This document shows positions 15,765-47,119 of a stretch of 64,000 nucleotides of DNA, in pieces. This stretch comes from an uncultured Chromatiales bacterium (lineage in GTDB: Bacteria > Bacteroidota > Ignavibacteria > SZUA-365). The notes beneath the pieces were generated by a model. It made no database searches. It worked only from the letters and a program-made list of their open reading frames with translations, and had not been told where the DNA came from. The stretch lies in contig CAZWNO010000002.1 of assembly GCA_964635845.1 (NCBI GenBank), positions 44,901-108,900 of the forward strand, in the 5' to 3' direction. Both the position numbers and the translations under genes were made by a program. Every line of letters starts with the position of its first letter. Position 1 is the stretch's first letter.

Positions 15765-16027
15765 CCGCCTGATTCGGAACGATCGAATCTACCGGGATCA
15801 GAAACGGCGGGGCTTCCGCGCACATCGCAGCTGTGATTCACGGGAATCCTTGAACTCGCATCTCCGCGTTCTGCGTGGAAATGCGTTTTTTTCCTGGCTG
15901 TTCAATTTTTTTCTTGCTTTTCGGGAAAGACCGCCATACATTGCAGTCCTCACTCTCACTCACCTCTCTCCACTCTCACTTGTTCTGTGACAGGATTACC
16001 TATGTCGTTCAGAATACGGTGAGAACC

Positions 16028-16867: not shown

Positions 16868-17005
16868 CGTTCGTAAACCGAACGCGCCTGTCCGCATCCC
16901 GTATGTTCTCGACAGGAGATGCCCAAAACCACTGTTTACAGGCGTCTTCCTCGCTGGCACGATGATTGCTCTGTGCAGTCAACAACAAGATATTCCAAGG
17001 ACATT

Positions 17006-25475: not shown

Positions 25476-26162
25476 ATGAAAAGACAGATTCTCTTTTTCT
25501 CCATCCTCCTTGCCGTCGCGTCAGCGACCTTCATCATCGCCCGTCCATTCCGCGTCGGACAGATACCGAACGGCACGAAGAACGCCTGCGCGAACTGTCA
25601 TGTCAATCCTGCCGGCGGCGGTCCGCGCAACGTCTTCGGACAGGAGGTCGAGGCGAATCATCTCACCGAACCGGGGGTCAATGGACAAGTGAAATGGAGT
25701 GCGGCGCTCGCCGTTCTCGATTCCGACGGCGATGGTTTCACGAACGGCCAGGAGCTTCAGGATCCCGAGGGAATCTGGAGGAGCGGACAACCGGCGCCAG
25801 GCAATCCCGCACTGGTCACCCGGCCGGGAGATCCGACTGATTTCCCCGTCACCACGACCGTGCAGCCTCTGCCCGGTGCGGTGAGCGATCACATGCTCGA
25901 GGGCAATTATCCCAATCCCTTCAATCCCGAGACGACCATCCGCTTCCGGATCGGCGAGGCCGGGCACGTGCGCCTCGAGATCTTCAACAGCCTCGGCGCG
26001 CGTGTGCGCGTGCTGGCCGACGAATACATGGAAGCGGGCCGATATGCCGGCAGCTGGAACGGCCGCGATGACGCGGGACGTCTCGTCGATTCGGGCACGT
26101 ACTTCTACCGCTACACCGCCGCCGGCTACAGCGCGACGAAACGCATGCTCCTGGTGAAATAG
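25476..26162 (+). CDS. secreted mono-heme cytochrome-c-like protein (CANCH) with a Ca-binding DSDGDGFTNGQE loop and a C-terminal T9SS-type sorting domain
   Basis: Signal peptide, CxxCH at residues 38-42, Asp-rich thrombospondin-type-3/EF-like loop. C-terminal NYPNPFNPETTIRFRI..GHVRLEIFNSLGARV..GSWNGRDDAGRLVDSGTYFYRYTAAGYSATKRMLLVK is a textbook Por secretion tail. Confidence 0.6.
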   Translation: MKRQILFFSILLAVASATFIIARPFRVGQIPNGTKNACANCHVNPAGGGPRNVFGQEVEANHLTEPGVNGQVKWSAALAVLDSDGDGFTNGQELQDPEGIWRSGQPAPGNPALVTRPGDPTDFPVTTTVQPLPGAVSDHMLEGNYPNPFNPETTIRFRIGEAGHVRLEIFNSLGARVRVLADEYMEAGRYAGSWNGRDDAGRLVDSGTYFYRYTAAGYSATKRMLLVK

Positions 26163-26250
26163 GAGAGGAGGGGAGGAGGAGAGGAGGGAAGAAGGGGCTA
26201 CTTTCTTTCTTTCCTTCTCCCCTTCTTTCCTTCTCCCCTACTTTCCTACT
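26161..26250. repeat. homopurine tract (36 nt of A/G) followed by a homopyrimidine tract forming a mirror/inverted repeat; probable bidirectional terminator or H-DNA-forming element
   Basis: AGGAGAGGAGGGGAGGAGGAGAGGAGGGAAGAAGGGG then CTACTTTCTTTCTTTCCTTCTCCCCTTCTTTCCTTCTCCCCTAC, between convergent genes. Confidence 0.5.
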
Positions 26251-28360
26251 TACGATGCCTGCCGATGAAATCGAAGAACTCCTCGAACCAGATGAGCTGT
26301 TCCTGCGGATGCAGGACCCAGTGATTCTCATCCGGATACACGATGAGTTTCGAAGGTATGCCCTTGACCTGCGCGACGGTGAATGCCTCGAGGCTCTGGG
26401 TATAAGGGACACGATAGTCTTTTTCCCCCGTGATGATGAGGATCGGCGTATCCCAGTTTTGTGCGTATCTGTGCGGTGAGTGCTTGTCGTAGTTCTTCCG
26501 TGCCTGTGCGTCCCAGTAGGGACCGCCGTTCTCCCAGTTCGTGAACCACAGCTCCTCGGTCGCCCCGTACATGCTTTCCAGATTGAACACGCCGCAGTGC
26601 GAGACGAAACTGCTGAAGCGTCCCTTGTGATTCCCGGCAAGCCAGAATGCGGCATACCCGCCGGCGCTGGCGCCGATGGCCGTCACGTGCTTCGTGTCGA
26701 TATAGGGCTCCTTGAGCATCGCATCCGTGCAGGCGAGAATGTCCTGCATCGGCATGCCGCCCCAGTCCTGGCTGATCGCGTCGTTCCATTCCTGCCCGAA
26801 ACCCGGGAGACCGCGGCGGTTCGGTGCGACAACGACGTAGCCCTTCGATGCGTAGAGAAGGAAGTTCCATGCGAAGCTGAAGAACTGGCTGACCGTGGAC
26901 TGCGGACCGCCCTGGCAATAGGTAATGAGCGGATACTTCTTCGAGGGATCGAAGTCCGGGGGATATACCACCCAGGTCTGCACCTTCTTCCCATCCGTGC
27001 TTGTGATCCAGCGCTCCTCGAATGTGGCGGGACGGATATCCTCCAGCACCTTGCCGTTCGCCTGCGTCAGCGGGAAAGGCCGCGCGTCCTTCTTCGCGGG
27101 CTGCACATAGATTTCGGTCGGAGCGTTGAAATTGCGTCGTCCGTAGACGAGTGTCGTGCCGTCGGGAGTGATGTCGAGTCCACCGTCGTGGTTGTACACA
27201 CCGCCGGTAAGGATTTCCCAGCTTCCATCGCCGGCGTCGATGCGGTAGATCTGCACCGTGGCGCCGTCCTCGGCCGCGAAGTACAGCGCCCTGCTGTCGG
27301 GAGACCAGACTGTCGTACCCACCCACTGATCGAGCGTGGTGGAGAGTTCGCGGACCTTGCCGCTGGCGCGGTCGAAGAGCATCAGTCGGTTGCGGTCCGC
27401 CTCGTGTCCCGCGCGCGACATGGAGTGAAAGGCGATGAAGCGTCCGTCGGGCGAGTACAGCGGATCGCGGTCGAAGCCCGGCATGCCTTCGGTGATATTC
27501 CTCGTGGCGCCTGAGGCAACATCCACGACATAAATATCCGAATTGGTGCTCGTGGCGAAGTCACCGACTTTTTTCGACGTATAGGCGATCTCGCGGCCGT
27601 CCGGCGACCATGCGATCTGCTCCGCGCCGCCGAAGGGTTTGAGCGGTGTTTCGAAGCGCTCGCCCGCCATCAGATCCCGGGCCTCGCCTCCTGAGGCCGG
27701 CATCACGAACAGATGCATGTAACTCTCGTCGTTCCATTCGTCCCAATGGCGCACATGGATTTTTTCGTAGATGCGCACCTTCGCCTTGGCGTAGGATGGA
27801 TACTTCTCCGCGACAGTGGAATCCAGCTTGACATCGGATGTGAATGCGAAGTACTTCCCGTCGGGCGACCAGGAGAGATTGCTCACTCCGTTCTCCACGT
27901 CCGATACCTTCACCGCTTCGCCGCCGTCGAGCGCGATCGTGTAAATTTGGGGACTGCCGCCTCGCGTGGACAGGAACGCGACAGCTTTTCCGTCCGGCGA
28001 CCAGCAGCCCTCGAAATCCGCTGAAGGCGATGCCGTCAGCTGCCAGTGCCGCTCTCCTTCGATCGAAACCAGATGAAGATCGGAATTGCTGCGGTTGGCC
28101 GGAATATCGGGTACGGTCACGCCGTACAGCACCCACTTGCCGTCGGGTGAGACGGCCGGACTGTACACGCGCTTCAGATTGAGCAGTTCCTCCGATGTGA
28201 TCAGATGGCTCGAGCTGGCAACTTTTTCCCTTACCGCTTGCTCGAGCCGCGCCTTCTCCGCCGGTGAAAGCGTCCTGGTTTTCGTTTCAATCTGAGCAAA
28301 CGCCTGCTGGGAAAACGCGAGCAGCAGTATCCCGACGGTGAATATGGTTCGCATGGTCAT
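26246..28360 (-). CDS. S9 family serine peptidase (acylaminoacyl-peptidase / DPP-like) with an N-terminal beta-propeller
   Basis: Signal peptide. TolB/WD40-like repeats (SPDGK.., SPDGR..). C-terminal alpha/beta hydrolase with GASAGGY nucleophile motif. Confidence 0.85.
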   Translation of the reverse strand: MTMRTIFTVGILLLAFSQQAFAQIETKTRTLSPAEKARLEQAVREKVASSSHLITSEELLNLKRVYSPAVSPDGKWVLYGVTVPDIPANRSNSDLHLVSIEGERHWQLTASPSADFEGCWSPDGKAVAFLSTRGGSPQIYTIALDGGEAVKVSDVENGVSNLSWSPDGKYFAFTSDVKLDSTVAEKYPSYAKAKVRIYEKIHVRHWDEWNDESYMHLFVMPASGGEARDLMAGERFETPLKPFGGAEQIAWSPDGREIAYTSKKVGDFATSTNSDIYVVDVASGATRNITEGMPGFDRDPLYSPDGRFIAFHSMSRAGHEADRNRLMLFDRASGKVRELSTTLDQWVGTTVWSPDSRALYFAAEDGATVQIYRIDAGDGSWEILTGGVYNHDGGLDITPDGTTLVYGRRNFNAPTEIYVQPAKKDARPFPLTQANGKVLEDIRPATFEERWITSTDGKKVQTWVVYPPDFDPSKKYPLITYCQGGPQSTVSQFFSFAWNFLLYASKGYVVVAPNRRGLPGFGQEWNDAISQDWGGMPMQDILACTDAMLKEPYIDTKHVTAIGASAGGYAAFWLAGNHKGRFSSFVSHCGVFNLESMYGATEELWFTNWENGGPYWDAQARKNYDKHSPHRYAQNWDTPILIITGEKDYRVPYTQSLEAFTVAQVKGIPSKLIVYPDENHWVLHPQEQLIWFEEFFDFIGRHRK

Positions 28361-28517: not shown

Positions 28518-30404
28518 CTACCGCAGGATCTGTACCTGTCGTGACGCTGCGCCGTTCTCCGTCCGCAGCACTACCTGGTAGTTGCCTGAAGGCAATGCCG
28601 AGAGATCGAGTGACAGCTCATCCGTCCCTGCTTCGAATCGTTTTTCACTCTCGTACAGAATTCTCCCGAGCATGTCGCAGAGCATGATTCGCGAATCCAT
28701 CGGTCGATCGAATGCGAGACGAAGCCGCAGGTGATCCCGTGCCGGCGATGGATACGCGTCGATGATCCGGAACGCCGCCGCGAGCGGTGACAGCTCCTTC
28801 ACGTCGAGCGTGGCGAGTCCGAGCCGCGCACAGTATATCTCGATATTCCCGTCGTTCATGCGTCCGTCGGACCAGAAGGGGAGGATCTCGGTATCGGTGA
28901 CGATCACCTGTGTATATTCCCCGATTCCGAAATCACTGTTTTTCTCCTTCGCCTTGTACATGTTCATCGGCAGGGCCGCGACAGGCCTGTTGGGCAGGAA
29001 GTGTCTGCCGCCGTCGCGCGATACCGCGATGTAGTAGCGTGCACTGGCGTTCGTTTCATCCTCGCGCCGATCGTACCAGGTGACGGCGACAACGCCCTGC
29101 GCGTTGACGGCGATGCTGGGATGGAACTGATCCCGCACGAGGCCTTTTTCATCATCGTTGATGATGCGCGGCGCCTCCCAGCTCAAGCCGTTGTCGGAGG
29201 ATCGCGAGAAATAGATGTCCGTGCCATTGCCCTCCTTCCGCGTGATACCGTTGGCGGTCCATGTCATATAGACATAGCCGGGATTCCCGCCGCGGTCGGC
29301 ACAGAATTGCGGACTGGGGTACATGCGTTCACTGGACATACCGGGAATTTCCCCGAGCCGATCTTCAATGGAAAATTTTGGGAATACTATATCCGATATC
29401 TTCGTCACGGACGGAAACGTCGCGCCTCCGTCCGTCGACAGGGCATGCCACAGACTGAAGTGCTGTTCATCGGCCGAACCGAACCAGGTCACATGCACTC
29501 CGCCCGAGGCATCCACATCGATGCTGGTGAACTGGACGATGGCGAGAGAATCCGGCGAAACGATGACCTGCGGCGAATCGAATTGCCGCGCCCCGGGCGA
29601 TTTGCTTCGCACTCGTATCTGCATGCGGTCATTGCTCGCTCTGAAATACGCGGCATACAGGGTACCGCGCGTGGGCGCCGTGCTGCGATCGACGGCCAGC
29701 CATTGCTTGTCGACAAAATTCTGCGCGGGATCATCCATCGAGTAGCGAGCCGTAGCGATCACATCCCGCTCCGGCCGCACCCATGTCGCCCCTCCATCGC
29801 TGGAAGTGGCCCAGTACAGCTCCGAGACTAACTCGTCCATCGTCTGTGGGAGATAGAAGGCCAGCCATGAGAAATACAGCGTCCCGTCATCGTCCGCCGC
29901 AAGTACCGGATCGCCCCCGCCCAGCAAAACGTCATCGGGATCGGGGAGCTCGGTGACGAAGGGGCTGACCTGCCATGACGCTCCATCGTCGAGTGTGTAG
30001 TACACAGGACAGGTGAGATCCTGGATGGTTCCATGGGACACCCGCTGCCGGATGGCTGCCACGATGAAGTTGCGCGGAGCCACCGGATTCACCACCGCAT
30101 GCACCTCCGACTCGGGATACAGGTCATCGCTGATGACGCTCTCGGTCCAATCGTCGTCCTGCGCCGCTTTCTGCCTCACGCCGGTGGACGTACTATTGTC
30201 CATACGATCACCGGATTTCGATGAAGCGGTGTGCGTGTCATTCCCGAGTTTCGCGGCCTCCCGTTCCACAGACGGGAGACGCAGGCGCGTATGCTTGCGC
30301 ACGGCTTCTTCCAGCAGTTGTTTGCGGAAGGATTTCTGCTCCTGTGCCTGCAGGGGACAGACGAGAACAAGCAAGGTTAAAATGGAAAGCAGTTTCACAG
30401 GCAT
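28518..30404 (-). CDS. secreted BNR/Asp-box repeat protein (sialidase-like beta-propeller) with a C-terminal T9SS-type sorting domain
   Basis: Asp-box motifs SSDGGATW, STDGGATF, SSDNGLSW, SRDGGRHF. C-terminal ..DMLGRILYES..AGTDELSLDLSALPSGNYQVVLRT.. tail. Start set at MPVKLLSILTLLVLV. Confidence 0.7.
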   Translation of the reverse strand: MPVKLLSILTLLVLVCPLQAQEQKSFRKQLLEEAVRKHTRLRLPSVEREAAKLGNDTHTASSKSGDRMDNSTSTGVRQKAAQDDDWTESVISDDLYPESEVHAVVNPVAPRNFIVAAIRQRVSHGTIQDLTCPVYYTLDDGASWQVSPFVTELPDPDDVLLGGGDPVLAADDDGTLYFSWLAFYLPQTMDELVSELYWATSSDGGATWVRPERDVIATARYSMDDPAQNFVDKQWLAVDRSTAPTRGTLYAAYFRASNDRMQIRVRSKSPGARQFDSPQVIVSPDSLAIVQFTSIDVDASGGVHVTWFGSADEQHFSLWHALSTDGGATFPSVTKISDIVFPKFSIEDRLGEIPGMSSERMYPSPQFCADRGGNPGYVYMTWTANGITRKEGNGTDIYFSRSSDNGLSWEAPRIINDDEKGLVRDQFHPSIAVNAQGVVAVTWYDRREDETNASARYYIAVSRDGGRHFLPNRPVAALPMNMYKAKEKNSDFGIGEYTQVIVTDTEILPFWSDGRMNDGNIEIYCARLGLATLDVKELSPLAAAFRIIDAYPSPARDHLRLRLAFDRPMDSRIMLCDMLGRILYESEKRFEAGTDELSLDLSALPSGNYQVVLRTENGAASRQVQILR

Positions 30405-30598
30405 TCCTCCACCTCCGGGATGATGTGACATGGTTTCGACGAGAGAAGTCGTATGCATTCAATATACGAGGAATTGACCTGAAATTCATCAGTTCGCCTT
30501 CAGACGCAATGATCGATTTTTCCCTTACCTCGCAGCGCAGGCTGTCGTATATTATTCAAATAAGCTGAATTCTTCCACACACAACATCCGGATAGCTT

Positions 30599-33598
30599 AT
30601 GCGACTTGCAGTACCAATTCTCGCAATGTTCATTGCTCTGACAATGATCACCGACGCCGCGGCGAAGGAACGTCCGCGTCCTGCGTCGCCAGCCGTTACC
30701 GTTTCCAACGACCTCGTGCCGGGGATAGTCTTCGTCAAATTCAAGGACAGCCGAACGCTCGCGCCCGGCGGGGCCGCCACGGGTATCGGCAGCGTCGACC
30801 GCATACTCGCCCGCGCGATGGCTTCCTCCGTCGAGCCTTTACACCGGACCCTGTCGCAGCGAAAGAGCTTCAACTCCACGCAGGAGGCGAGTCTCGCCCG
30901 CATCGTGAAAGTCCGCTACTCCGCGTCGCTCGATCCGAAGCAGCTTGCCGCCGAACTCGCGGCAGATCCCTCCGTCGAGTACGCCGAACCGTACTACGCC
31001 TTCCGTCCGCTGCACACGCCCGACGATCCCCGCCTGACAACGCAGTGGGCCGTGACCATGCTGAAAATGCAGGAGGCATGGGACGTCACCACGGGTGATT
31101 CCACGATCTCCATCGGGTATGTCGACTCCGGTGTGAATTACGCCCACGAGGACCTTTCCCTCTCCCTCGCGATCAACGCAGGTGAATGGGGTGCGAACGG
31201 CGAACTCAAGGACAACGGCCTCGACGATGACGGCAACGGCTACATCGACGACTGGCGCGGCTGGGATTTCGTCGGGAACGGCACTTTGACGGCGCCGAAT
31301 CCGGATAACGACCCGATGGATTTCAACGGGCACGGGACCAACGGCGCGGGGATTGCCGCTGCACGCACCAACAACGGAAAGGGAATCGCCGGCATTGGCT
31401 ACATGACAAAAATCCTTGCGATCAAGGTGCAGGACGATGCGGGCCAGACCGGCTTCGCAGGTTATGAGGGGATCACCTACGCCGCCGACATGGGCTGCCG
31501 CGTCATCAACTGCAGCTGGGGCGACAATGCGATGATCAGTCAGACACTGCAGGACGTCGTCGACTATGCATGGTCGAGAGGCGCGCTCGTCGTCGGCGGT
31601 GCGGGCAACAGCGTCATCGACAACGACATCAACCCGTTCATCCCCGCTTCGCTGAACCATGTGCTCAGCGTCAGTTCCTTTGAGGAAGACGGCAGCAACA
31701 GCGCCTGGGCGGCCTACGGCGCATCGGTGCACGTCTACGCACCCGGCACCAACGTGCTCACGACACGCGGAAGCTTCGGCTACCAGGCCGTGACCGGCAC
31801 ATCTTTCGCCGCCCCGCACATGTCAGGCCTTGCGGCGCTGATCTTCGCCGTGCATCCGGACTGGACTCCCGATCAGGTGCTGCAGCAGATCCGCGTCACG
31901 GCCGACGGTTTCGGCGCGACTCCCGACGCGAAGCGCTATGGCCGGGCGAATGCACAGAAGGCGCTCACCATGAACTCTGTCCTCAACGATCTTCCTGGGA
32001 TCGCGGTCGAGAGCTTCACGGTCAGCACGCCGCAGGGTGCGTATTTCAGCCAGGGCGGACAGACCGCCACGATCAATGTCACGCTCAAGAATCATCTCGC
32101 GCCCGCGGTGGACGCTACGGTGGATCTCGTGCTCACCGGCGCACCGGTCACGGCCACGACGACCAACTTTCCGCTCGGTGCGATGGCGAACATGGTCACC
32201 AAGAGCATAACCATCGAGGTGCGGCTCAACGACGACGTCAAACAATCCGAGGGATACATCCCTGTCATTCTGAAGATCACTTCCGGTACGCTTGTTGATT
32301 TCGAAATCGTGCGCGTACCGATCTATCTCGACGACGCCTGGCATACGGTGGTCGATCTCACGTATCCGTACAACTCGATCGACCAGCCGAACCGTTGGAC
32401 CGTCTGGGTCAGCGGTGATTACGCGCCGAACGGCACACCGACACAGGACATCGCGATCCGCACGACCGACGGCGGCGACAGCTGGCTCTACGCTTTCGGT
32501 ACGGGCTTCCCGAGTGGTCGCGGTGTGTACTGCATCGACGGTATCGATGAGAACAATGCGCTCGTGGGCACGGGTCCGGCAGACGGGAACGCCGCCATCT
32601 TCCGCACCGGCGACGGTGGACAGAACTGGACTTCGTCCAGCGTCTCCAACATGACGGCCTTCGTCAACTGGATTCACATGTTCGACGGTCAGAACGGCAT
32701 CATGCAGGGAGATCCGAAGGGCAATGCCTGGGCGCTCGCCACGACGAACAACGGCGGGCAGACCTGGTCGCCCATTTCGACTCCGCTGGGTGCGGCCACA
32801 GGCGAGACGGGATGGAACAACAGTTACGATGTCGTGGGTGATCATATCTGGTTCGGAACGAACAGCAGCAAGATCTATCGCTCCACCGACCGTGGACAGA
32901 CCTGGACGGGGTATGCCACACCGAGCAAGAATTCGGTCGACGTCAATTTCCGCGATGAACTCGTGGGCATCGCCCGCTTCTCGAAACAGGCCGAGCAGGG
33001 CACGGATACACTCGCACTCACCTTGGACGGCGGTCTCACCTGGTCGCTGATCTCAACCATCGCCGCTCCGTCGGGTTCGACGGCGTTCGAGCGCGGCGGG
33101 AAGCGCCTCTGGTTCTTCCAGGGCGCGAATGCGCTGGTCTCCACCAACCTCGGTGCGACATGGAACGTTCAGGCGGCCCCGAGCGATTTCAATTACGTCA
33201 ACGACGCGGCCGAGTGGAATGACGGAGCCGTCACCATGGTGTTCGCCGCAGGCATCGAGATTTTCCGCTACGCCGGCCAGTTCATGGTGCTCGGTGTCGG
33301 AGACTTGGAAGCGGCGGCGCCGGCGATCCCGCTGCTGCACGCGCTCTATCCGAATCCCGTTGCCTCGGGACGCGACGGCAGCGTCATCGCGCAGCTCCAG
33401 CTCCCCTCGGCGGCCGCGGTTGTGCTTGCAGTTTACGACATGAGCGGCAAGAAGGTACGCGAAGTGCTGAACGCCACGCTCGAAGCCGGCATGCACAGCG
33501 CCCGTGTTTCTACCGCCGGACTCTCCGCCGGCAACTACCTGCTTCGTCTGAGCACGCCGGTCACGAGCAGCGCGCAAAAGCTCGTCGTACTGAACTAG
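30599..33598 (+). CDS. S8 subtilisin-family peptidase fused to an Asp-box beta-propeller and a C-terminal T9SS-type sorting domain (999 aa)
   Basis: Propeptide. Catalytic D (VDSGV), H (NGHGTNGAG) and S (GTSFAAPHMSG). Six Asp-boxes (TDGGDSW, GDGGQNW, NNGGQTW, TDRGQTW, LDGGLTW, NLGATW). Tail LYPNPVASGRDG..VYDMSGKKV..LSAGNYLLRL. Confidence 0.85.
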   Translation: MRLAVPILAMFIALTMITDAAAKERPRPASPAVTVSNDLVPGIVFVKFKDSRTLAPGGAATGIGSVDRILARAMASSVEPLHRTLSQRKSFNSTQEASLARIVKVRYSASLDPKQLAAELAADPSVEYAEPYYAFRPLHTPDDPRLTTQWAVTMLKMQEAWDVTTGDSTISIGYVDSGVNYAHEDLSLSLAINAGEWGANGELKDNGLDDDGNGYIDDWRGWDFVGNGTLTAPNPDNDPMDFNGHGTNGAGIAAARTNNGKGIAGIGYMTKILAIKVQDDAGQTGFAGYEGITYAADMGCRVINCSWGDNAMISQTLQDVVDYAWSRGALVVGGAGNSVIDNDINPFIPASLNHVLSVSSFEEDGSNSAWAAYGASVHVYAPGTNVLTTRGSFGYQAVTGTSFAAPHMSGLAALIFAVHPDWTPDQVLQQIRVTADGFGATPDAKRYGRANAQKALTMNSVLNDLPGIAVESFTVSTPQGAYFSQGGQTATINVTLKNHLAPAVDATVDLVLTGAPVTATTTNFPLGAMANMVTKSITIEVRLNDDVKQSEGYIPVILKITSGTLVDFEIVRVPIYLDDAWHTVVDLTYPYNSIDQPNRWTVWVSGDYAPNGTPTQDIAIRTTDGGDSWLYAFGTGFPSGRGVYCIDGIDENNALVGTGPADGNAAIFRTGDGGQNWTSSSVSNMTAFVNWIHMFDGQNGIMQGDPKGNAWALATTNNGGQTWSPISTPLGAATGETGWNNSYDVVGDHIWFGTNSSKIYRSTDRGQTWTGYATPSKNSVDVNFRDELVGIARFSKQAEQGTDTLALTLDGGLTWSLISTIAAPSGSTAFERGGKRLWFFQGANALVSTNLGATWNVQAAPSDFNYVNDAAEWNDGAVTMVFAAGIEIFRYAGQFMVLGVGDLEAAAPAIPLLHALYPNPVASGRDGSVIAQLQLPSAAAVVLAVYDMSGKKVREVLNATLEAGMHSARVSTAGLSAGNYLLRLSTPVTSSAQKLVVLN

Positions 33599-33622
33599 TC
33601 GAGCGCGATCGGCGCCGTTTCT

Positions 33623-33672
33623 GCAGAAGCGCACAGAGGACACATTCCTTTGTGCGCTTCTGCATTTCTTAT
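33623..33672 (+). terminator. rho-independent terminator (GCAGAAGCGCACA-15nt-TGTGCGCTTCTGC + atttcttatta)
   Basis: 13-bp perfect stem followed by a T-rich tract, directly after the first S8 gene. Confidence 0.55.
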
Positions 33673-33737
33673 TATCCCATCCTTCATTATCTTGTTCGAT
33701 CTTTCGCCTCTCGCCCCTGAATCATTACTGGTGACCT

Positions 33738-36700
33738 ATGAAAGCTTTCTCCGGCATGTGCATCGCAGCACTGTATCTGCTCCTGGCAGCCTCCCCCACA
33801 CTTGCGGATTCTCCCGAAAGGACTGCCTCTCCCGCCACTTACGGTAAGAGATCCGTTGAGATCGTACCCAACGTCCTCATCGTCAAGCTCCGGCCGCAGG
33901 TCAGCTTCAGCAGCGGCGGTGATCGTCTCGGTGTGCGCGCCCTCGATGCGATACTCGCACGCGTGGGCGCAACGGCGGTGGAGACGTTCAGCACCGTGAA
34001 GGAGAATGCTATGCAGAAGGCCGCAAGGCGTCAGTACCACCACGATCGCATGGTCAAGATCCGTTACAGCTCGACCGATCATCCGGCACTGCTTGCGAAG
34101 GAGATCGCAAGCGACCCGAACGTGGAATACGCCGAGCCGTACTACGTTTATCCTGTGTCCCATACGCCGAATGATCCGCGGCTGAGCACGCAATGGGCTG
34201 TCACCGTGATGAAGCTGAAGGAAGCTTGGGATGTCACGACGGGGGACTCCACCATCATCATCGGCGATGTGGACACCGGCGTGGACTGGACGCATGAGGA
34301 TCTTTCTCTGAGCATCTATATCAATCCCGGCGAGTATGGAACGAACGGCGAGCTTTCAGCCAACGGTGTCGATGACGACAGCAACGGCAAGATCGATGAC
34401 TGGCACGGCTGGGATTACTTCGGCAACGGCAGCTTCTCGGCGCCCAAGCCCGACAACAATCCCATGGACGGCACGCTCGGTCACGGCACCAACACTTCCG
34501 GCTGCGCAGCGGCGCTGGCCAACAACGGCCTTGGCATCGCGGGCAGCAGCTACCGCGCGAAGATACTCGCGATCAAGGCTTCGACGGATCAGACCGGCGG
34601 CGTCGGCGGTTACGAAGGAATCCTTTACGCGGCACAGATGGGCTGCCGCATCATCAATTGCAGTTGGGGCGGCTCAGGTGATCGGTCACAGGCTCTGCAG
34701 GATCTGGTAGACGACGTCACCGACATGGGAGCACTCGTGGTCGGTTCCTCCGGCAATGATCCGATCGACAACGACTACACGCCGCACTGGCCGTCGTCGT
34801 TCAACCGCGTCCTCAACGTCGGTTCGGTCGAATCGAGCGGCGCGGCGTCGACCTGGTGTACCTACGGCACCTCCGTGCATACGTATTCCCCGGGCAGTGG
34901 TATTCTCACCACGAAGAAGGGCGGGGGATACACGAATCCGACCGGGACATCCTTTTCTTCTCCCCTCGCTTCCGGTGTCGCGGCGCTGGTGTTCGCCATG
35001 CATCCCGACTGGACCCCCGACCAGGTTGCCGCGCAGATCCGCGTCACGTCTGACCGTTTCGGAAGCACGCCGACGAGCAAGCGCCTGTCCCGTCTCAACG
35101 CGTTCAAGGCGGTCTCGCTCAACCGGAATCTCGACGAGATTCCCGGCCTTCGCATCAGCCGATTCTCTTACGTGTTCCAGGGCGGTGGTTCGAGTTTCAC
35201 GGAACCGAGGCAGACCGCCCGCGTCACCGTGGAGTTCGAGAATGTTCTCGCTCCGACATCGGCGGCGGCCACCGCGTATGTCGATCTGGACGATCCCTCC
35301 ATCACGGCGAGCGCGACGGATTTCGCGCTCGGTGTCATGAATACCTTCGACAAGAAGACCGTCGAATTCGACGTGGTGCTCTCCGACAAACCGCAGACCT
35401 CCGAAGGCTACCTGCCGGTGCGCATCCGCATCGAGGACGGCGAATACCTTGATTACGTGATGGGACGCATCCCGATTTTCCTCGACGACGCCTGGCATAC
35501 GTCGCTGTCGTTCGGTGCACCGTACTTCACCTCCATCGATGCGGTGAGCGCAACCGTGGTATGGGCGACGGCGAACGTGCAGAGTCAGGATATCTGCGTG
35601 CGAACCGTGAATGGCGGATCGTCATGGAGCAACACCGCCGGTTCTGGATTTCCGAATGGCAAGGGAGTCTACTGCGTGTTCGGCGTGAACAGCAGCATCG
35701 CGCTCGTGGGCACCGGGCCGGATTCCGGCCCGGCTGGGGTCTTCCGCACCACCAACGGCGGAACGCTCTGGACAGGCAGCTCGGTGAGCAGCATCACGGG
35801 CTTTGTCAACTGGATTCATATGTTCGACGCACAGAACGGGATTCTGCAGGGAGATCCCCTCGGCGGAACCTGGGGCATCGCGACCACGACCGACGGCGGA
35901 GCGACGTGGACCAAGGCACCGGGGGCACCGGCCGCTCCCACCGGCGAAGCGGGGTGGAACAACAGCTATGCCGCCGCCGGCGACACACTGTGGTTCGGTA
36001 CCAACAACAGCAAGATCTACCGCTCCGTCGACCGCGGGGCGACATGGAGCAGTTTCCCGACGCCGAGCAAGCATTCCGTCGATATGGTCTTCGCCGACAG
36101 CAGGCGCGGCATGATCCGCTTTACGACCCAGACCAGTTCCGGCGGCACGAACGCCCTGGCGGTGACCAGCGACGGCGGCGAGACCTGGACGCAGCTGAGC
36201 ACCATCACCGTCACGACGGGCGGCAGCATCGAGGTCGAACCCGATGGCAAGCGCTTCTGGTTCATGCAGGGCACCAACGCGCATGTCTCGTCCGACCTCG
36301 GCGCAACCTGGACAGTACAGGCCACGCCTGGCGGCTTCGGACTGATCACCTGTTCCTCCGCCTACAGCGGCGGCATCAAGAGCGACGTGTATGCAGCGGG
36401 TCTCGACATCTTCAAGTTTACCTCGACGTTCGATCCCTACAATACCACCGGCATCGGTGATGCACCCGCGGCCGCCGGTTTCGGGATCGATTATCTGTAC
36501 CCGAATCCCGTTTCGACCGCGTCCGCAGGCGGCATCACCGTCGGCTTCACGCTCGATGAAAGCTCGGCCGCAAAGCTTGCCGTGTACGACAACCTGGGCC
36601 GTGTCGCAGTCGAAGGTCTCGACGCCAACCTCACGGCTGGTGCGCACAGCTTCCGTCTCGACACGTCCGCGCTGAGCACCGGCGTCTATCGCGTCCGCGT

Positions 36701-36749
36701 GCAGGCAGGCGATCGCGCTGCGACGGCAAACCTTCTCGTGATTCATTAG
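33738..36749 (+). CDS. S8 subtilisin-family peptidase fused to an Asp-box beta-propeller and a C-terminal T9SS-type sorting domain (1003 aa; tandem paralog)
   Basis: Same architecture as 30599-33598. Catalytic triad (VDTGV, GHGTNTSG, GTSFSSPLASG). Asp-boxes NGGSSWS, NGGTLWT, TDGGATWT, DRGATWS, SDGGETWT, DLGATWT. Tail LYPNPVSTASAG..VYDNLGRV..LSTGVYRVRV. Confidence 0.85.
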   Translation: MKAFSGMCIAALYLLLAASPTLADSPERTASPATYGKRSVEIVPNVLIVKLRPQVSFSSGGDRLGVRALDAILARVGATAVETFSTVKENAMQKAARRQYHHDRMVKIRYSSTDHPALLAKEIASDPNVEYAEPYYVYPVSHTPNDPRLSTQWAVTVMKLKEAWDVTTGDSTIIIGDVDTGVDWTHEDLSLSIYINPGEYGTNGELSANGVDDDSNGKIDDWHGWDYFGNGSFSAPKPDNNPMDGTLGHGTNTSGCAAALANNGLGIAGSSYRAKILAIKASTDQTGGVGGYEGILYAAQMGCRIINCSWGGSGDRSQALQDLVDDVTDMGALVVGSSGNDPIDNDYTPHWPSSFNRVLNVGSVESSGAASTWCTYGTSVHTYSPGSGILTTKKGGGYTNPTGTSFSSPLASGVAALVFAMHPDWTPDQVAAQIRVTSDRFGSTPTSKRLSRLNAFKAVSLNRNLDEIPGLRISRFSYVFQGGGSSFTEPRQTARVTVEFENVLAPTSAAATAYVDLDDPSITASATDFALGVMNTFDKKTVEFDVVLSDKPQTSEGYLPVRIRIEDGEYLDYVMGRIPIFLDDAWHTSLSFGAPYFTSIDAVSATVVWATANVQSQDICVRTVNGGSSWSNTAGSGFPNGKGVYCVFGVNSSIALVGTGPDSGPAGVFRTTNGGTLWTGSSVSSITGFVNWIHMFDAQNGILQGDPLGGTWGIATTTDGGATWTKAPGAPAAPTGEAGWNNSYAAAGDTLWFGTNNSKIYRSVDRGATWSSFPTPSKHSVDMVFADSRRGMIRFTTQTSSGGTNALAVTSDGGETWTQLSTITVTTGGSIEVEPDGKRFWFMQGTNAHVSSDLGATWTVQATPGGFGLITCSSAYSGGIKSDVYAAGLDIFKFTSTFDPYNTTGIGDAPAAAGFGIDYLYPNPVSTASAGGITVGFTLDESSAAKLAVYDNLGRVAVEGLDANLTAGAHSFRLDTSALSTGVYRVRVQAGDRAATANLLVIH

Positions 36750-36841
36750 AATCCGCGGCAGGTGGCCGGCGCGGCACCCGCGCGTTTCTGATTGACGGCC
36801 ATCAGTTTCCCGCACCGCGACAGCGAAAATTTTCTTATACT

Positions 36842-36877
36842 TGAAGGATACCGAATTTCGGTATCCTTCATTTTTTT
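36842..36877 (+). terminator. rho-independent terminator (GAAGGATACCGA-att-TCGGTATCCTTC + ATTTTTTTC)
   Basis: 12-bp perfect stem, 3-nt loop, run of 7 T. Between the second S8 gene and lgt. Confidence 0.65.
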
Positions 36878-36895
36878 CACACGAAAGATCCGCCC

Positions 36896-37675
36896 ATGTT
36901 CACCTGGAGTCCCGATCCCGTATTCTTCAGTATCGGAGAATGGCACATCCGCTGGTACGGTCTGCTCTTCTCCCTCGCGTTCCTGTGCAGCTTTGCTGTC
37001 ATGGTGTGGATCTTCCGGCGGGAGAAAAAAGGCGACGACCTCCTGAACAAGCTCTTCCTGTACGTGTTCGTCGGGGTGGTGGTCGGAGCGCGCCTCGGAC
37101 ACTGTCTCTTCTACAGTCCCGAATTCTACCTGACACACCCCCTCGAGATTCTGAAGATCTGGGAGGGCGGACTCGCCAGTCACGGTGCGGCCGCGGGCAT
37201 CCTGCTTGCGATCCTTCTGTTCGTTCGTACGACACCGGGAGTGAGTTTCTACTGGGTGACCGACCGCGTCTCGGTGGTGATTCCGCTGGCTGCGATCTTC
37301 GTCCGCCTCGGCAATTTCGTGAATTCGGAGATCCTGGGACTCCCAACCAGCGTTCCCTGGGCGGTCATTTTCGCGCGCGTCGACGACATCCCGCGGCATC
37401 CCGTGCAGCTCTACGAGGCGATAAGCTATCTCGCCATATTCGTGATCATGATCCTTCTGTACCGGAAGAACGCGGCAGCGCGCGCGGGACGCCTGACCGG
37501 CAGTATGGTCGCCATGCTCTTCACCATGCGGTTCTTTCTCGAATTCTTCAAGACCGGACAGTCCACACTCGATCCTTCCATGCCCATCACCATGGGACAG
37601 CTGCTGAGCGTCCCTCTCGTGCTGTTCGGACTCTGGTTGCTTATGCGAAAGTCGGCCGCCCCCATGAAATCGTGA
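36896..37675 (+). CDS. lgt: prolipoprotein diacylglyceryl transferase
   Basis: Lgt signature (HIRWYGLLFSLAFL..GARLGHCLFY..WEGGLASHGAAAG..FVRLGNFVNSEILG). Confidence 0.9.
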   Translation: MFTWSPDPVFFSIGEWHIRWYGLLFSLAFLCSFAVMVWIFRREKKGDDLLNKLFLYVFVGVVVGARLGHCLFYSPEFYLTHPLEILKIWEGGLASHGAAAGILLAILLFVRTTPGVSFYWVTDRVSVVIPLAAIFVRLGNFVNSEILGLPTSVPWAVIFARVDDIPRHPVQLYEAISYLAIFVIMILLYRKNAAARAGRLTGSMVAMLFTMRFFLEFFKTGQSTLDPSMPITMGQLLSVPLVLFGLWLLMRKSAAPMKS

Positions 37676-37759: not shown

Positions 37760-38815
37760 TCAATTCCCCACACCGATCCCGACACCCCATCGCGCCGTCA
37801 AACCGGCGAGCACCTTCCCTTCGGTGGTGACAGTGCACCAGAAGCCCGGACGCACACCGGCCGCTTCGACGAAGCCAGGGTACAGGTTGAGCGTCACGAG
37901 GTTCGAAGAGATGCCGCTCAGTACGAGCGATGCGAGAAGGGAGTTCTCGCGATCGTAGAACACGCCGGCGCTCCAGACCAGGCTGCCTGTCAGATGCAGG
38001 GGATTCTCCGTCTCCGGAATGACGTCCGCATTGCGCAGTCCGGCAGCGACCGATACCGCGCTCCCGTCATCGAAGCGGCGGGAGAGTCCCGCCAGACCGT
38101 TGATGCCGAAGACATAGATCAGGGAATGCCCGTCCCAGAAGGGCAGGTTGTATTTCGCGACAAAGTACTGTCCGGTATTCCGCAACGTCATGTCCCTCAC
38201 GTTCAGTGTCGGTTGCAGCGACCAGTCGTTCAGGTGCAGCGTTTCCGAGAAAAAGACGGCGACATCGTCTATGCTGAAGAGCAGCATTCCCCCGATGTCG
38301 AAGAGATAGATATCCGCCAGCGGGTCGATCAGCTCTCCCTGCACGCCGTTGTTTTCCACGACCTCATTGAGCAGGTGATAGGCCATGACGGTCGCGGCTG
38401 ACCATACGCGCGGCGCGGCGAAGCCGTGCTGCTCGTACCATTCGCCGAGCTTGACGAAGGTCATGCCTCCGCCGACCAGGTGCAGCTGGTAATTCGGCCA
38501 CCAGCTCGCACCTTCGCTGAATTCCAGCGGCAGCACTTCATGTCGGAGAAAACGTCCCCAGCCATAACGATTGATCAGCGGCAGCGGCTTCGCGAGATTG
38601 CCGAACACCGTGCGTCCGGCCTGCGCGAAGGGATAGGCGAACACATCCCGGCGATAGCGATCGAGCTGGAGGATATCGAAGCCGCCGTTGAGCAGCACCG
38701 TCAGCGGAGAGTACTGCGCCTCGCTTCCCCAGTCCTGTCCCCGGTAATACAGCTGCTGCGCTCCCGCGCAGGTGATAATTGCGAAAAATAACGCAATCGT
38801 GCTGATTCCGGTCAA
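37760..38815 (-). CDS. hypothetical secreted/outer-membrane protein. Proposed TTG start at 38815 (preceded by AGGAGA) gives the signal peptide M/L-TGISTIALFFAIITCAGAQQ
   Basis: There is no ATG near the obvious signal peptide. The ORF-track start at 39028 would add about 70 non-hydrophobic residues before it. No recognisable domain. Confidence 0.4.
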   Translation of the reverse strand: MTGISTIALFFAIITCAGAQQLYYRGQDWGSEAQYSPLTVLLNGGFDILQLDRYRRDVFAYPFAQAGRTVFGNLAKPLPLINRYGWGRFLRHEVLPLEFSEGASWWPNYQLHLVGGGMTFVKLGEWYEQHGFAAPRVWSAATVMAYHLLNEVVENNGVQGELIDPLADIYLFDIGGMLLFSIDDVAVFFSETLHLNDWSLQPTLNVRDMTLRNTGQYFVAKYNLPFWDGHSLIYVFGINGLAGLSRRFDDGSAVSVAAGLRNADVIPETENPLHLTGSLVWSAGVFYDRENSLLASLVLSGISSNLVTLNLYPGFVEAAGVRPGFWCTVTTEGKVLAGLTARWGVGIGVGN

Positions 38816-39136
38816 TATTCTCCTACCGAGTCCACGAAGAGAACGGGATGGACCAATCAATCTGCCTGGATAGTGCGGGCTTCGGTGCGGGCTGAGACTT
38901 CCGGAAAAGTAAATTATGAAGAATACTGTACTTGCGTCCTGCATGGAAGTGACGTACGGGGAGAAAAGGATGGTTTGGGGGATAGGGGTGGACAATCCCG
39001 ACCACGGAAAGGTTACAGAAATTCTCACATTTTCCTAACGGAATCTTGTTTTTATCGTAAATTCCGTGTAATCTTCGTGACCTGCACAGGCAGAGCCTAT
39101 CGCATTCCATAGATATGTTCCACTCCGGAGAAAACG

Positions 39137-40928: not shown

Positions 40929-43058
40929 TCAGCCGACACCAAGTTCCCGGAGAAGAAAATCCGCTTTTCCGAGATACCTGGCGACGAACAGCACGTAGCG
41001 GATGTCGGCGCCGATGCTGCGGCTGTAGTCCTCGCTCCACTGGTAGTCGTTGACGGTGGCTTCGTAGGCGCGGTCGAAGTTCACGCCGACCAGCTCGCCG
41101 CGCGCATTGAGCACCGGACTGCCGGAATTGCCACCCGTGGTGTCCATGTTGTAGAGCATCGCGACAGGAACGTCTTCGAGCAGGGCATCTTCGTAGCTCT
41201 TGTCGTAGTTCCGTGTGTTGTAGAGTTCCACGAGCTGCGATGGCGCGTTGAACGGTTCCACGCCGGAGTTTTTCTCGATGAGCCCGCGAAGCGTGGTCTG
41301 CGGTTTGAAGTATGTGGCATCGGCCGGGGCGTAACCGCGGATATAACCATAGGTCAGCCGCAGCGTGCTGTTGGCGTCGGGAATGAAATCCTTTTTCTGC
41401 CATGCCATTTTCGCATCGATGAATTCGGCTTCGAGTCGTTTGAGTTCGCCGTCGCGGGATCGGCGCCGCGCGATGATCTGCTCGTTGATCGCGTTGAGAT
41501 CGCGCGCGAGCACGACGAAGGGATCCTTGCTCGCGGCGAGCGTCTCCCTGCTCCACCCGGCGATCACGTTGATGCCCGCATGCGACGCGATGGCGCTCTT
41601 CTGAAACGCCTCGCGCACGCGGATGACGGCCGTCGCGCGGTCCGCATCCTTGCCGATGAGCGCGGGAAGCGAGGCCGGCTTCTGCGTGGCGGGCAGTTTC
41701 GAGAAGTCATGCAGCAGCGTGGCGAGGAATTCGAGTTCCGTGCCCTGGTGAATCTGGCCGTACTGCGCTTCGATGAACTGCTGCATGCGTACCGCCTTGT
41801 CCCCGGTGACATCCCCTTTTTCCACGGACTTCATGACGGAGGCGAGCATCGAGATGTAATGGTTGCGTGCGATCTGTGTGGCGATGATCTCCTGCAGCGC
41901 CGTCGCCTCGTACTCTGCGTAGACACCGCGCAGTTCGGCCTGTGTTCTGCTGAATTTCGCACGGAGTTCCGGTGTGCTCTCGATATGCTGTTGCAGCGCG
42001 GCTTCCTCGGCGCGGCGCTTGTCGACCAATCCGAGGCGGCGCAGTCCCTGCAGCTTGCCCTTGTAGTTCTTTGTTGCGTTGGCGAGCCCCTTCGTAAGAT
42101 CGGCGAACGCCAGCTGCAGCGTGCGATCGCCTTCCGAGGCCTTGTCCAGGGTCTCGATCATATAGTCATAGCGCGCGGAGAGGTACGGCAGAATGACATT
42201 CTGATAGAGCGCGATATAGTCCGATGTCTTGTGCCTGTAAGTGCGTCCGGGATAGCCGAGAATGAACACGAAATCACCTTCGCTCACTCCCTTCGGCGCG
42301 ACCTTGATATGGCGCTTGGGCTTGTACGGTACGTTTTCCTTCGCATACGTGGAGGTTTTCCCGTCGGGAGCGACGTAGGCGCGAAGGAAGGAGAAGTCCC
42401 CTGTGTGCCGCGGCCAGACCCAGTTGTCGATCTCGCCGCCGAAGTTGCCCACGGCGAGCGGCGGCACGTACACCAGGCGGACGTCGAGGATGATGCGATA
42501 GGTGAAGAGGACATAGCTCTTGCCGGGAAACATCTCCGAGACTTCACAGGAGATATTCTCGCGGCCCGCTTCCTCGTCCTTCGCCAGCTTCTTCATCTGC
42601 TCCTGTATCGCGTCGCTGCGCTGTGCGGGAGTCATGCCGGCGGTGACCACGCCGAGCACTTCTTTCGACACGTCGCGATACGCCTCGGTGATCCGACAGT
42701 TGTATCCGCGCGCGGGGAGTTCCTCGTCGCGCGTGGCGGCGGTGAAACCGTTTCGGAGGTAGTCATGCTCCGGCGTGCTTGCGTCGGTGACGCCGCTGAA
42801 GGCAATGTGATGGTTGGTGAGTATCAGGCCGTCCGCGGAGACGAATTCTCCCGTGCCGCCTCCCACCTGGCAGATGGCGTCGACGAGGCTGACGCCGTCG
42901 GGATTATATATTTCGGATGCATCGATCTGCAATCCTTTGGCCTTGAGGTCGATGCGTGCGATCTCGCTCAGAGGGTACATACCCTCGTCAGCGGTGAGTC
43001 CGACGACCAGGAAAAGGGATAACGCGACGAGAGTGGCCAGGCGAACGGTGCGGAACAT
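40929..43058 (-). CDS. S46 family dipeptidyl-peptidase (DPP7/DPP11-like), secreted
   Basis: Signal peptide MFRTVRLATLVALSLFLVVG. N-terminal GGTGEFVSADGLILTNHHIAF (catalytic His region) and C-terminal GGNSGSPVLNARGELVGVNFD (catalytic Ser) of S46. Confidence 0.85.
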   Translation of the reverse strand: MFRTVRLATLVALSLFLVVGLTADEGMYPLSEIARIDLKAKGLQIDASEIYNPDGVSLVDAICQVGGGTGEFVSADGLILTNHHIAFSGVTDASTPEHDYLRNGFTAATRDEELPARGYNCRITEAYRDVSKEVLGVVTAGMTPAQRSDAIQEQMKKLAKDEEAGRENISCEVSEMFPGKSYVLFTYRIILDVRLVYVPPLAVGNFGGEIDNWVWPRHTGDFSFLRAYVAPDGKTSTYAKENVPYKPKRHIKVAPKGVSEGDFVFILGYPGRTYRHKTSDYIALYQNVILPYLSARYDYMIETLDKASEGDRTLQLAFADLTKGLANATKNYKGKLQGLRRLGLVDKRRAEEAALQQHIESTPELRAKFSRTQAELRGVYAEYEATALQEIIATQIARNHYISMLASVMKSVEKGDVTGDKAVRMQQFIEAQYGQIHQGTELEFLATLLHDFSKLPATQKPASLPALIGKDADRATAVIRVREAFQKSAIASHAGINVIAGWSRETLAASKDPFVVLARDLNAINEQIIARRRSRDGELKRLEAEFIDAKMAWQKKDFIPDANSTLRLTYGYIRGYAPADATYFKPQTTLRGLIEKNSGVEPFNAPSQLVELYNTRNYDKSYEDALLEDVPVAMLYNMDTTGGNSGSPVLNARGELVGVNFDRAYEATVNDYQWSEDYSRSIGADIRYVLFVARYLGKADFLLRELGVG

Positions 43059-43242
43059 TGTGCGAAGCCTCCGATGATAATCACATTTGAACGTGCTGCC
43101 GCGGGGCATGCATCGTTCAAGATAAGGAAAAAGCGAGAGCGGCGAAAAGATGCGGGTGCATGCCCCGCATGAATGGCACGGAATCACGATTTCCGTTATT
43201 TTTCAATTGACGCAGCACCTACATACAATGCCGGGATCACAG

Positions 43243-46811: not shown

Positions 46812-47119
46812 GAAACCTCCGGTAATGATCAGCGCCGGGTTGCGGTTGACGCGTAAATTACCATGTTCACGCGTAAATTCCGATTCCCTGCTGCCCTCCT
46901 CCAGGCCGTCTGCAGCGATTTTCCGGTCCGCGGCCTCCGAAGTCCCGACAACCTGCAGCGGTTCTCCGGTCCGTGGCTTCCGATGTCCCGATGGCCCGCC
47001 AATTGCCTGTCGCTTGGCTGTAACCTTCACTATATTGAGGTGTTATTATGAACGTGTGCTGTTTTACATACGTTCATTGAATGGATCACTGATACCGAGT
47101 ACCTGGAATCGCCGCCGCA

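Follow-up and report, generated by a model that had tools for sequence, protein, structure and literature searches.

A conserved tandem pair of predicted T9SS-exported subtilases with Ycf48-like Asp-box propellers in an uncultured FCB-group bacterium

Gene A and gene B

The DNA analysed here, referred to as the window, is a stretch of 64,000 nucleotides (nt) from contig CAZWNO010000002.1 (positions 44,901 to 108,900, forward strand; GenBank assembly GCA_964635845.1) of an uncultured bacterium placed by GTDB in the Ignavibacteria of the Bacteroidota. It harbours two adjacent genes, A (30599-33598, + strand) and B (33738-36749, + strand), which according to their open reading frames (ORFs) and translations encode related proteins of 999 and 1003 amino acids (aa). 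Their lengths and coordinates are exactly those given in an earlier interpretation made from the letters alone (the sequence-only reading), which regarded the pair as giant subtilases carrying a glycan-recognising propeller and a type IX secretion system (T9SS) tail. The A protein is identical to database protein P0001 and the B protein to P0037, and an independent Logan assembly also holds both genes. The G+C content is about 60% throughout the window, and the locus shows no compositional break.

Pfam and NCBIfam profile scans revealed the same domain content in both proteins. Peptidase_S8 (PF00082) was matched with 140.6 bits (E=8e-41) in A and 133.1 bits in B against a cut-off of 21.8, BNR matches were present in both, and Sortilin-Vps10 was reached barely at its threshold (33.1 and 36 bits against 33 for A and B, respectively). 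The T9SS tail was recognised at the extreme C-termini (aa 916-997 and 920-999) by TIGR04183 (34.5 and 33.0 bits, cut-off 23) and by Por_Secre_tail PF18962 (27.7 and 32.0 bits, cut-off 27). The domain scan proposed in the sequence-only reading (Peptidase_S8, BNR/Sortilin-Vps10 and TIGR04183) is in this way above cut-off for every named profile in both proteins, and the S8 domain, the T9SS tail and probably the propeptide were correctly read. Database annotation of relatives of about 1000 aa already reads "S8 family serine peptidase". Weak NCBIfam matches (mycosin, PatA, dentilisin, BamI, IteS) were far under their cut-offs and were disregarded.

The layout of A was established from these profiles together with an AlphaFold2 model built on a 70-sequence family alignment (full-length predicted local distance difference test, pLDDT, 89; predicted template modelling score, pTM, 0.70). 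A is accordingly annotated as a pre-pro-subtilase with a beta-sandwich, a seven-bladed Asp-box propeller and a T9SS C-terminal domain (CTD). The predicted Sec signal peptide comprises aa 1-22 (MRLAVPILAMFIALTMITDAAA; 30599-30664), with cleavage before K; in the model a helix at aa 4-18 is followed by a low-confidence linker, and the N-termini of both A and B read as typical n-h-c regions with AXA-type sites. The putative pro-domain (aa 39-137, about 39-133 in the model; 30713-31009) was delimited by profiles and modelled secondary structure, which follows a beta-alpha-beta-beta-alpha-beta order except that beta2 and beta3 are separated by an additional helix. As an isolated segment it matched the Fervidolysin_NPro-like family PF22148 marginally (21.6 bits, cut-off 21), and Peptidase_S8_N (PF16361) stayed below its cut-off of 30.5 in A (22.9 to 24.9 bits) and B (18.5 bits). 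The S8 catalytic domain (aa 138-462; 31010-31984) contains D176, H245, N337 and S402 as placed by PF00082 and alignment. Next comes a seven-stranded beta-sandwich of about 110 aa (aa 468-577; 32000-32329; strands modelled at aa 468-576 with pLDDT >90), for which no Pfam family was matched at E<=10 beyond noise. The propeller occupies aa 578-897 (about 320 aa; 32330-33289), and after a flexible or disordered linker in the model the protein ends in a type-A T9SS sorting domain (aa 912-999; 33332-33595), recognised by TIGR04183 and PF18962 and modelled as a beta-sandwich. All of these features lie on the + strand.

B has the same domain order as its paralogue, with an intact triad: predicted signal peptide at aa 1-23, S8 at about 141-466, sandwich at about 472-583, propeller at about 584-900 and CTD at about 918-1003. 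The three-part architecture proposed earlier therefore needs amendment. Its S8, Asp-box and T9SS parts stand, while the supposed central domain of roughly 500 aa resolves into a separate beta-sandwich of about 110 aa, between S8 and propeller, and a propeller of about 320 aa. The word "giant" was likewise overstated for a multidomain subtilase of 1000 aa.

The Asp-box domain

Each protein contains six Asp-box motifs (S/T-x-D/N-x-G-x-T/S-W) spaced 40-48 aa apart (at aa 622, 670, 716, 762, 808 and 848 in A), the number given in the sequence-only reading. Whether the central domain would model as a beta-propeller had been set beforehand as a refutation test, and it does so: the A propeller modelled alone gave a pLDDT of 95.9 and a pTM of 0.93 for an all-beta structure of four-strand repeats. 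The blades number seven and not six as earlier supposed. They are formed by 27 strands and an N-terminal closing strand (all-beta over aa 581-894 in the full-length model), the seventh blade consisting of three C-terminal strands completed by the N-terminal one, and in blades 1-6 the Asp-boxes are placed between the third and the fourth strand.

In a Foldseek comparison with the PDB, Ycf48 ranked first, with a TM-score of 0.64-0.74 over the full length of both structures, followed by halves of GH74 enzymes, G-beta, DAIP and sortilin. The best matches with full coverage were the seven-bladed Ycf48, G-beta and DAIP. All of the top 50 were beta-propeller proteins, mostly of Asp-box type with a few WD40 and Kelch structures, and, leaving aside 4j9t at rank 48 (a de novo design for which no scaffold is given), none of them was a sialidase. 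Ycf48 has been described as a 7-bladed propeller that binds the D1 polypeptide (PMC10403576). Because the model holds seven four-strand groups, Ycf48 heads the structural matches and Ycf48 is itself seven-bladed, the Asp-box domain is classified from the model as a seven-bladed Ycf48-like propeller of about 320 aa.

Membership in the established Asp-box families was considered in turn. A six-bladed sialidase-type propeller was rejected on the seven modelled blades. The NCBIfam Ycf48 profile NF010237 was matched partially and with 24.6 bits where the cut-off is 326; membership in Ycf48/HCF136 was rejected on this score. Sortilin/Vps10 was also rejected; the domain has seven blades and about 320 aa, the profile match spans model positions 4-114 of 446 only, and the target-normalised TM-score (TMt) to sortilin was 0.20-0.25. 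GH74 was rejected on the presence of a single propeller. Among solved structures no close sequence relative was found, the best being the GH74 enzyme 3a0f (E=0.014) with similarity in the Asp-box regions only.

Catalytic residues and differences between the copies

The Asp-His-Ser order and the oxyanion-hole Asn (D176/H245/S402 and N337 in A numbering) are kept in A and B. Across 70 aligned homologues, which include the clades of both paralogues, H245, N337 and S402 are invariant (70/70) and D176 is found in 69/70. The nearest solved relatives of the S8 domain are Ak.1 protease, deseasin MCP-01 and thermitase at 32-34% identity (E 1e-40 to 1e-43), and the modelled domain superposes on these three with a TMt of 0.86-0.93 and a root-mean-square deviation of 2.0-2.4 Å, as expected of the subtilisin alpha/beta fold. 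By profile, triad and fold, A and B are assigned to the S8 family, and proteolytic activity is predicted for both.

At eighteen positions the A clade and the B clade have each fixed a different residue (shared by at least 90% of the clade), and 13 of the 18 fall in the S8 domain. Among them are G334, A335 and F347 of clade A, which are S, S and H in clade B. These we take to be positions 152, 153 and 166 of subtilisin BPN', in ungapped register with the conserved GN(155) and P(168), so that they would belong to the S1 pocket's wall and floor. Such clade-fixed differences suggest that A and B prefer different P1 residues.

Age and maintenance of the duplication

A and B share 49% identity over 990 residues in BLASTP, and 49.5% of amino acids and 58.0% of nucleotides in a codon alignment. 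Conservation is highest in S8 (62% aa identity) and the propeller (52%) and drops to about 36% in pro-domain, sandwich and CTD. The earlier estimate of about 55% for protein was thus too high, and about 75% for DNA in conserved stretches is approached only in the best 150-nt windows (70-74%). The longest exact run shared by the genes is 21 nt (CTCGACGACGCCTGGCATACG; 32324-32344 in A and 35481-35501 in B). It encodes LDDAWHT at the junction of the beta-sandwich and the first propeller strand, and W581 within it is nearly invariant in the family.

Synonymous divergence (dS) between A and B is saturated. Compared with the 90%-identical orthologues at metagenomic locus L002, the ratio of nonsynonymous to synonymous divergence (dN/dS) was 0.096 for A and 0.103 for B by the NG86 method and 0.063 for both by maximum likelihood, so that the alignment and selection check proposed earlier places both copies under purifying selection (about 0.06-0.10). 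A family search recovered dozens of proteins of about 1000 aa with the same Pfam content in metagenome-assembled genomes (MAGs) labelled Bacteroidota, Ignavibacteria, Chlorobi or Kapaibacterium, and A-type and B-type relatives were repeatedly encoded on one contig. In a neighbour-joining tree they separate into two clades, A and B, whose internal topologies mirror each other. The order A, B, lgt is found with the same orientation both in the window and at four other metagenomic loci (L002, L004, L005 and L089), whose A orthologues are 59-90% identical. Among the matches listed in a contig search, the best of which was 41% identical, the full architecture also occurred in MAGs of Melioribacter/Melioribacteraceae, LCP-89 and Neomarinimicrobiota. 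Copy number in relatives, another proposed check, gave a divided answer: the tandem pair recurs at the four loci, and single copies are found at L006, L087 and L088.

Tandem arrangement alone could raise the suspicion of an assembly duplication or of a recent copy in decay, and near-identity of the genes had been named in advance as the sign of such an artefact. The 58% nt identity, the short exact run, the purifying selection on both copies and the recurrence of the pair in independent NCBI, JGI and Logan assemblies leave this explanation with practically no credibility, and gene conversion was rejected together with it on the low nt identity, the 21-nt run and the saturated dS. Since dN/dS is low in both copies, dS is saturated and the A, B, lgt order recurs at the four other loci, an ancient duplication with both copies held by purifying selection is strongly supported by these comparisons. 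The sequence-only reading, which had an old and maintained duplication, was right in this respect.

Transcription signals

Upstream of A, promoter-like boxes were found by comparison of the loci: CTTACC (30524-30529) and TATATT (30548-30553; + strand), separated by an 18-nt spacer and ending 45 nt before the ATG. The arrangement CTTAC[CG]-N18-TATATT is kept 5' of the A orthologues in L002, L089, L004 and L005. A terminator-like hairpin follows A at 33622-33664, with a 19-bp stem and a 5-nt loop, and leads into TTTCTTATT (feature 33622-33674, + strand; intergenic region z = -5.6). In L002, L004 and L005, too, A is followed by a strong hairpin, conserved in position with unrelated sequences.

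Between this hairpin and B lie a promoter-like TATCTT (33688-33693) and GATCTTTCGCC (33698-33708; + strand). TATCTT is kept in L002, L089 and L004, not in L005. The second box, GATCTTTYGC (GATCTTTYGCC), recurs in L002, L004 and L005, and L089 has GATATTTAGCC. Just past the B stop codon there is a weak GC hairpin (36769-36783, + strand), followed by a terminator-like hairpin with a 13-bp stem (36842-36870) and T7 (feature 36842-36877, + strand), identical in L002, which ends 19 nt before the lgt start codon at 36896. The assignment of an own terminator to each gene is confirmed in that both hairpins are present and terminator-like by sequence. A box AATTTTTCTTATACTTGA 5' of lgt is kept in four of the five loci and reads TATACTTG in the window (36836-36843), where it overlaps the 5' arm of the B hairpin; in L004 a short hairpin directly follows a AATTTTTCTTATACTTGA-type box. 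If this box were the lgt promoter, lgt transcription would start inside the hairpin and escape termination, and read-through from B would be stopped, giving an overlapping terminator and promoter.

A scan for the sigma-70 consensus yielded nothing convincing, and an Rfam search over 30000-37500 yielded nothing at E<=1. The position of the boxes suggests a promoter function. Taken jointly, the hairpins and the conserved promoter-like boxes support separate transcription units.

Spread of the propeller and its possible ligand

An exhaustive HMMER search with the propeller only returned 6272 representative clusters at E<=1e-3, with the domain at varied positions in proteins of 244-2669 aa. In a sample of 44 such proteins, 30 carried a T9SS CTD and eight an S8 domain; other partners were fn3, Ig-like and Kelch domains and a C10 peptidase, and many had no catalytic domain. 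The motifs FVNWIHMFD, QGDP, ExGWNNSY and WFGTN, which do not belong to the Asp-boxes, are conserved across these fusion contexts and also in propeller proteins that are not proteases. Because of the number of clusters, the share of CTD-bearing proteins and the motifs kept across contexts, the propeller is regarded, as judged from profile searches, as a generic module of T9SS cargo in bacteria of the Fibrobacteres-Chlorobi-Bacteroidetes (FCB) group. Within the proteins P0130-P0270, giant T9SS cargo proteins (>2000 aa) contained as many as 14 occurrences each of the Ycf48-like subtype, and a recurrent class of about 720-800 aa had two to four matched stretches, mostly a CTD and no catalytic domain.

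The sequence-only reading saw in the propeller a lectin-like domain that steers the protease to cell-surface substrates which are glycosylated or embedded in polysaccharide. Glycosidases are indeed frequent among the solved Asp-box propellers, the structural and the sequence neighbours both include halves of GH74 xyloglucanase, a weak NCBIfam match to the "F510_1955 family glycosylhydrolase" was obtained (22-37 bits against a cut-off of 175), and a protein with BNR_2 and CTD is encoded divergently beside gene A. Sortilin, on the other hand, binds peptides, and glycan binding by GH74 enzymes needs the cleft between two propellers, of which A and B have one each. No carbohydrate-binding module or lectin family was found in the Pfam and NCBIfam scans of A and B, and the neighbouring BNR protein is unrelated to the A/B propeller and absent from L004, L005 and L089. 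DAIP has been crystallised with a thermolysin fragment, according to PDB titles. The Asp-box's conserved residues have been characterised as structural and the motif as "highly unlikely to be involved in ligand binding" (PMC2716378), and the best fold match, Ycf48, binds a polypeptide. The claim of a carbohydrate- or glycoprotein-recognising propeller is consequently unsupported, and we regard targeting to glycosylated substrates as rather improbable.

The broad distribution of the propeller allows another interpretation, in which it retains or positions cargo at the surface and has no part in substrate recognition, so that A and B would be surface-tethered proteases. The binding partner might be, for instance, a glycolipid of the cell surface, a component of the outer membrane or another cargo. 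The occurrence of the subtype in thousands of clusters, mostly ending in a CTD in the sample and often without a catalytic domain, would agree with such a role, as would the motifs kept across differing fusions. A precedent exists in PorZ, which two reports present as a T9SS surface component with beta-propellers and a CTD that handles anionic lipopolysaccharide (A-LPS) (PMC8545088, PMC5121618). No sequence relationship to PorZ was seen, in searches that were not aimed at it; moreover, the co-occurrence with CTDs may merely mirror the lineages sampled, and the conserved motifs may be structural. We consider a pure tethering function unlikely.

Gene neighbourhood

The window is chromosomal in character, with genes for UvrA, fumarase, CorA and HtpG. 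By profile, several further peptidases are encoded around the pair: an S9 prolyl-oligopeptidase-type protein with PD40 propeller repeats (26246-28360, - strand), an S46 dipeptidyl-peptidase (40929-43187, - strand), an S15-like hydrolase with T9SS CTD (43150-45066, + strand) and an M2/M3-like metallopeptidase (45123-47030, - strand). The S9 gene lies upstream of the pair in four of the five loci (window, L002, L004 and L089), and a TonB_C gene, a gene of metallo-beta-lactamase fold and S46 lie downstream in the window, L002 and L004. S9 and S46 hold their position relative to the pair even in distant loci.

A hidden Markov model (HMM) built on the family detected eight ORFs with a T9SS-type CTD in the window. 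Apart from A and B these are 15875-16867, 16919-17653, 25476-26162, 28518-30458, 43150-45066 and 49673-50887 (E 1e-12 to 1e-23). Among these six are a protein with Temptin_C, one with VWA and two ORFs without a Pfam family. This density of T9SS cargo is unusually high for 64 kb. The ORF at 28518-30458 (- strand), divergent from A, encodes the BNR_2/BNR protein with CTD mentioned above (646 aa), which stands beside A in the closest relatives (L001, L002 and L003). Its candidacy as a third propeller paralogue was rejected, since the BLASTP likeness did not extend beyond the CTD and single Asp-boxes. A 422-aa ORF without Pfam match (37760-39028, - strand) separates lgt from the TonB_C gene, and an unannotated gene for about 351-355 aa has the same position in L002 and L089.

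Interpretation

The explanation that we find reasonably probable is that A and B are anciently duplicated, separately transcribed and secreted endopeptidases of subtilisin type, with differing specificity, which serve nutrition from protein in an uncultured FCB-group bacterium (Bacteroidota/Ignavibacteria/Kapabacteria-like). Both proteins would be exported by Sec through their N-terminal signal peptides and fold in the periplasm with the aid of the pro-domain, which would at the same time keep the enzyme inhibited. The type-A CTD would then be recognised by the T9SS and the outer membrane crossed, after which the CTD would be removed and the enzyme released or anchored to the surface, becoming active once the pro-domain is gone. 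The beta-sandwich and propeller, as non-catalytic modules, probably dock the enzyme on a macromolecular substrate or surface. Both copies may have been kept for their differing substrate-binding clefts, each with its own promoter and terminator, which together would provide a broader cleavage range. Their products could feed the neighbouring exo- and oligopeptidases (S9, S46, S15, M2/M3-like). Such a peptidase-rich context is in keeping with endoproteolysis outside the cell and subsequent processing of oligo- and dipeptides, as outlined for the asaccharolytic Porphyromonas (PMC8048996).

The possibility of a mutual or joint action of A and B, through reciprocal removal of pro-domains or in a heteromeric complex, which would make the pair one functional unit, has to be weighed against this. 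That the genes strictly co-occur in a fixed order at five loci, with mirrored phylogenies, would be in line with joint action, and the T9SS-exported subtilases SpBcA and SpBcB of Bergeyella cardium cleave each other in vitro (PMC11982257). Yet separate terminators and promoter-like boxes speak against obligatory stoichiometric co-expression, both copies have complete catalytic and pro-domains, and single-copy relatives exist; we judge a joint unit to be very unlikely.

Several points weaken the case for two complementary nutritional endopeptidases. The nutritional role is attributed through guilt by association with the neighbouring genes. The conserved adjacency of lgt finds no explanation in it. 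The group-C relatives (L006, L087) and an outgroup of about 1050 aa (L088) manage with a single copy in unrelated contexts. The placement of the three clade-specific residues in the S1 pocket follows sequence register and not coordinates, with BPN' numbering and alignments to thermitase and Ak.1. Finally, the motifs shared by the propellers outside the Asp-boxes could mark a specific common ligand, which the explanation leaves unnamed.

A more far-reaching proposal would make the Ycf48-like propeller a widespread polypeptide-capturing, and not glycan-binding, module of T9SS cargo that in these subtilases holds protein substrates for the catalytic domain, and the A/B pair with its different S1 pockets a dedicated two-enzyme system of extracellular proteolysis that defines a class-level clade of uncultured Bacteroidota/Ignavibacteria-like bacteria. 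To this we attach a small chance. The analogy on which polypeptide capture is modelled, with Ycf48 gripping the D1 tail and sortilin binding peptide C-termini, is equally tentative.

If endopeptidases of differing specificity are indeed what A and B are, the uncharacterised combination of subtilase, Ycf48-like propeller and T9SS tail is added to the known protease cargo of the T9SS, which is of modest importance. The pair would also provide a clean case from nature of an old protease duplication whose copies show fixed S1-pocket differences and have stayed adjacent throughout a broad uncultured lineage, and would help in understanding the protein-based life of these environmental bacteria. It may supply paired enzymes whose specificities possibly complement each other, and it offers a convenient test case for the function of the common Ycf48-like propeller in T9SS cargo. 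Established concepts are left unchanged.

Comparison with known systems

Going by family assignment, A and B are ordinary in kind: members of S8 and of type-A T9SS cargo with an Asp-box propeller. The S8-propeller-CTD combination was not described in the literature searched (subtilisin with Asp-box or propeller and T9SS; Kapabacteria/Ignavibacteria; photosystem II stability with subtilisin).

In the propeller, the likeness is greatest to Ycf48/HCF136, which shares seven blades, a length of about 300 aa and Asp-box repeats. Identity to Ycf48 is only 15-17%, however, and Ycf48 occurs on its own, as a lumenal lipoprotein of oxygenic phototrophs, while the propeller of A and B is part of a protease predicted to be secreted. 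Sortilin/Vps10 and GH74 proteins share the Asp-box repeat pattern, and GH74 halves are structural neighbours; sortilin differs in its 10-bladed propeller with 10CC modules, and GH74 enzymes in that two tandem seven-bladed propellers form the catalytic cleft, whereas A and B have one propeller and no recognised glycosidase features.

The catalytic domain shares the S8A fold, the D-H-S triad and the oxyanion Asn with thermitase, Ak.1 and deseasin MCP-01, and with deseasin also a DDDGNGYIDD-type insertion between the catalytic Asp and His. These enzymes have no C-terminal extension, or PKD in the case of deseasin, and are not T9SS cargo, while in A and B a novel beta-sandwich comes after the catalytic domain, followed by the seven-bladed propeller and the T9SS CTD. 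Multidomain subtilases of Fervidolysin/Vpr type, to which A gave long Foldseek alignments (1r6v and 8jmw), resemble the pair in the putative fervidolysin-like pro-domain and in one or more beta-sandwiches after the catalytic domain; they are without propeller and T9SS CTD and belong to other lineages.

The closest characterised analogues, in logic, are SpBcA, SpBcB and SpBcC of Bergeyella cardium, modular and paralogous S8 cargo of the T9SS from the KP-43 subfamily that are self-activating (PMC11982257). They match A and B in S8 domain, beta-sandwich, accessory binding domain or domains, T9SS CTD and the presence of several paralogues per genome, and their signal peptide and inhibitory propeptide have predicted counterparts in A and B. 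They differ in an S8 domain of KP-43 type, as opposed to the thermitase-like one of A and B, and in accessory domains of PKD, cleaved-adhesin and choice-of-anchor J type in place of a propeller. The SpBc proteins belong to host-associated Flavobacteriales, and a conserved tandem pair was not reported for them.

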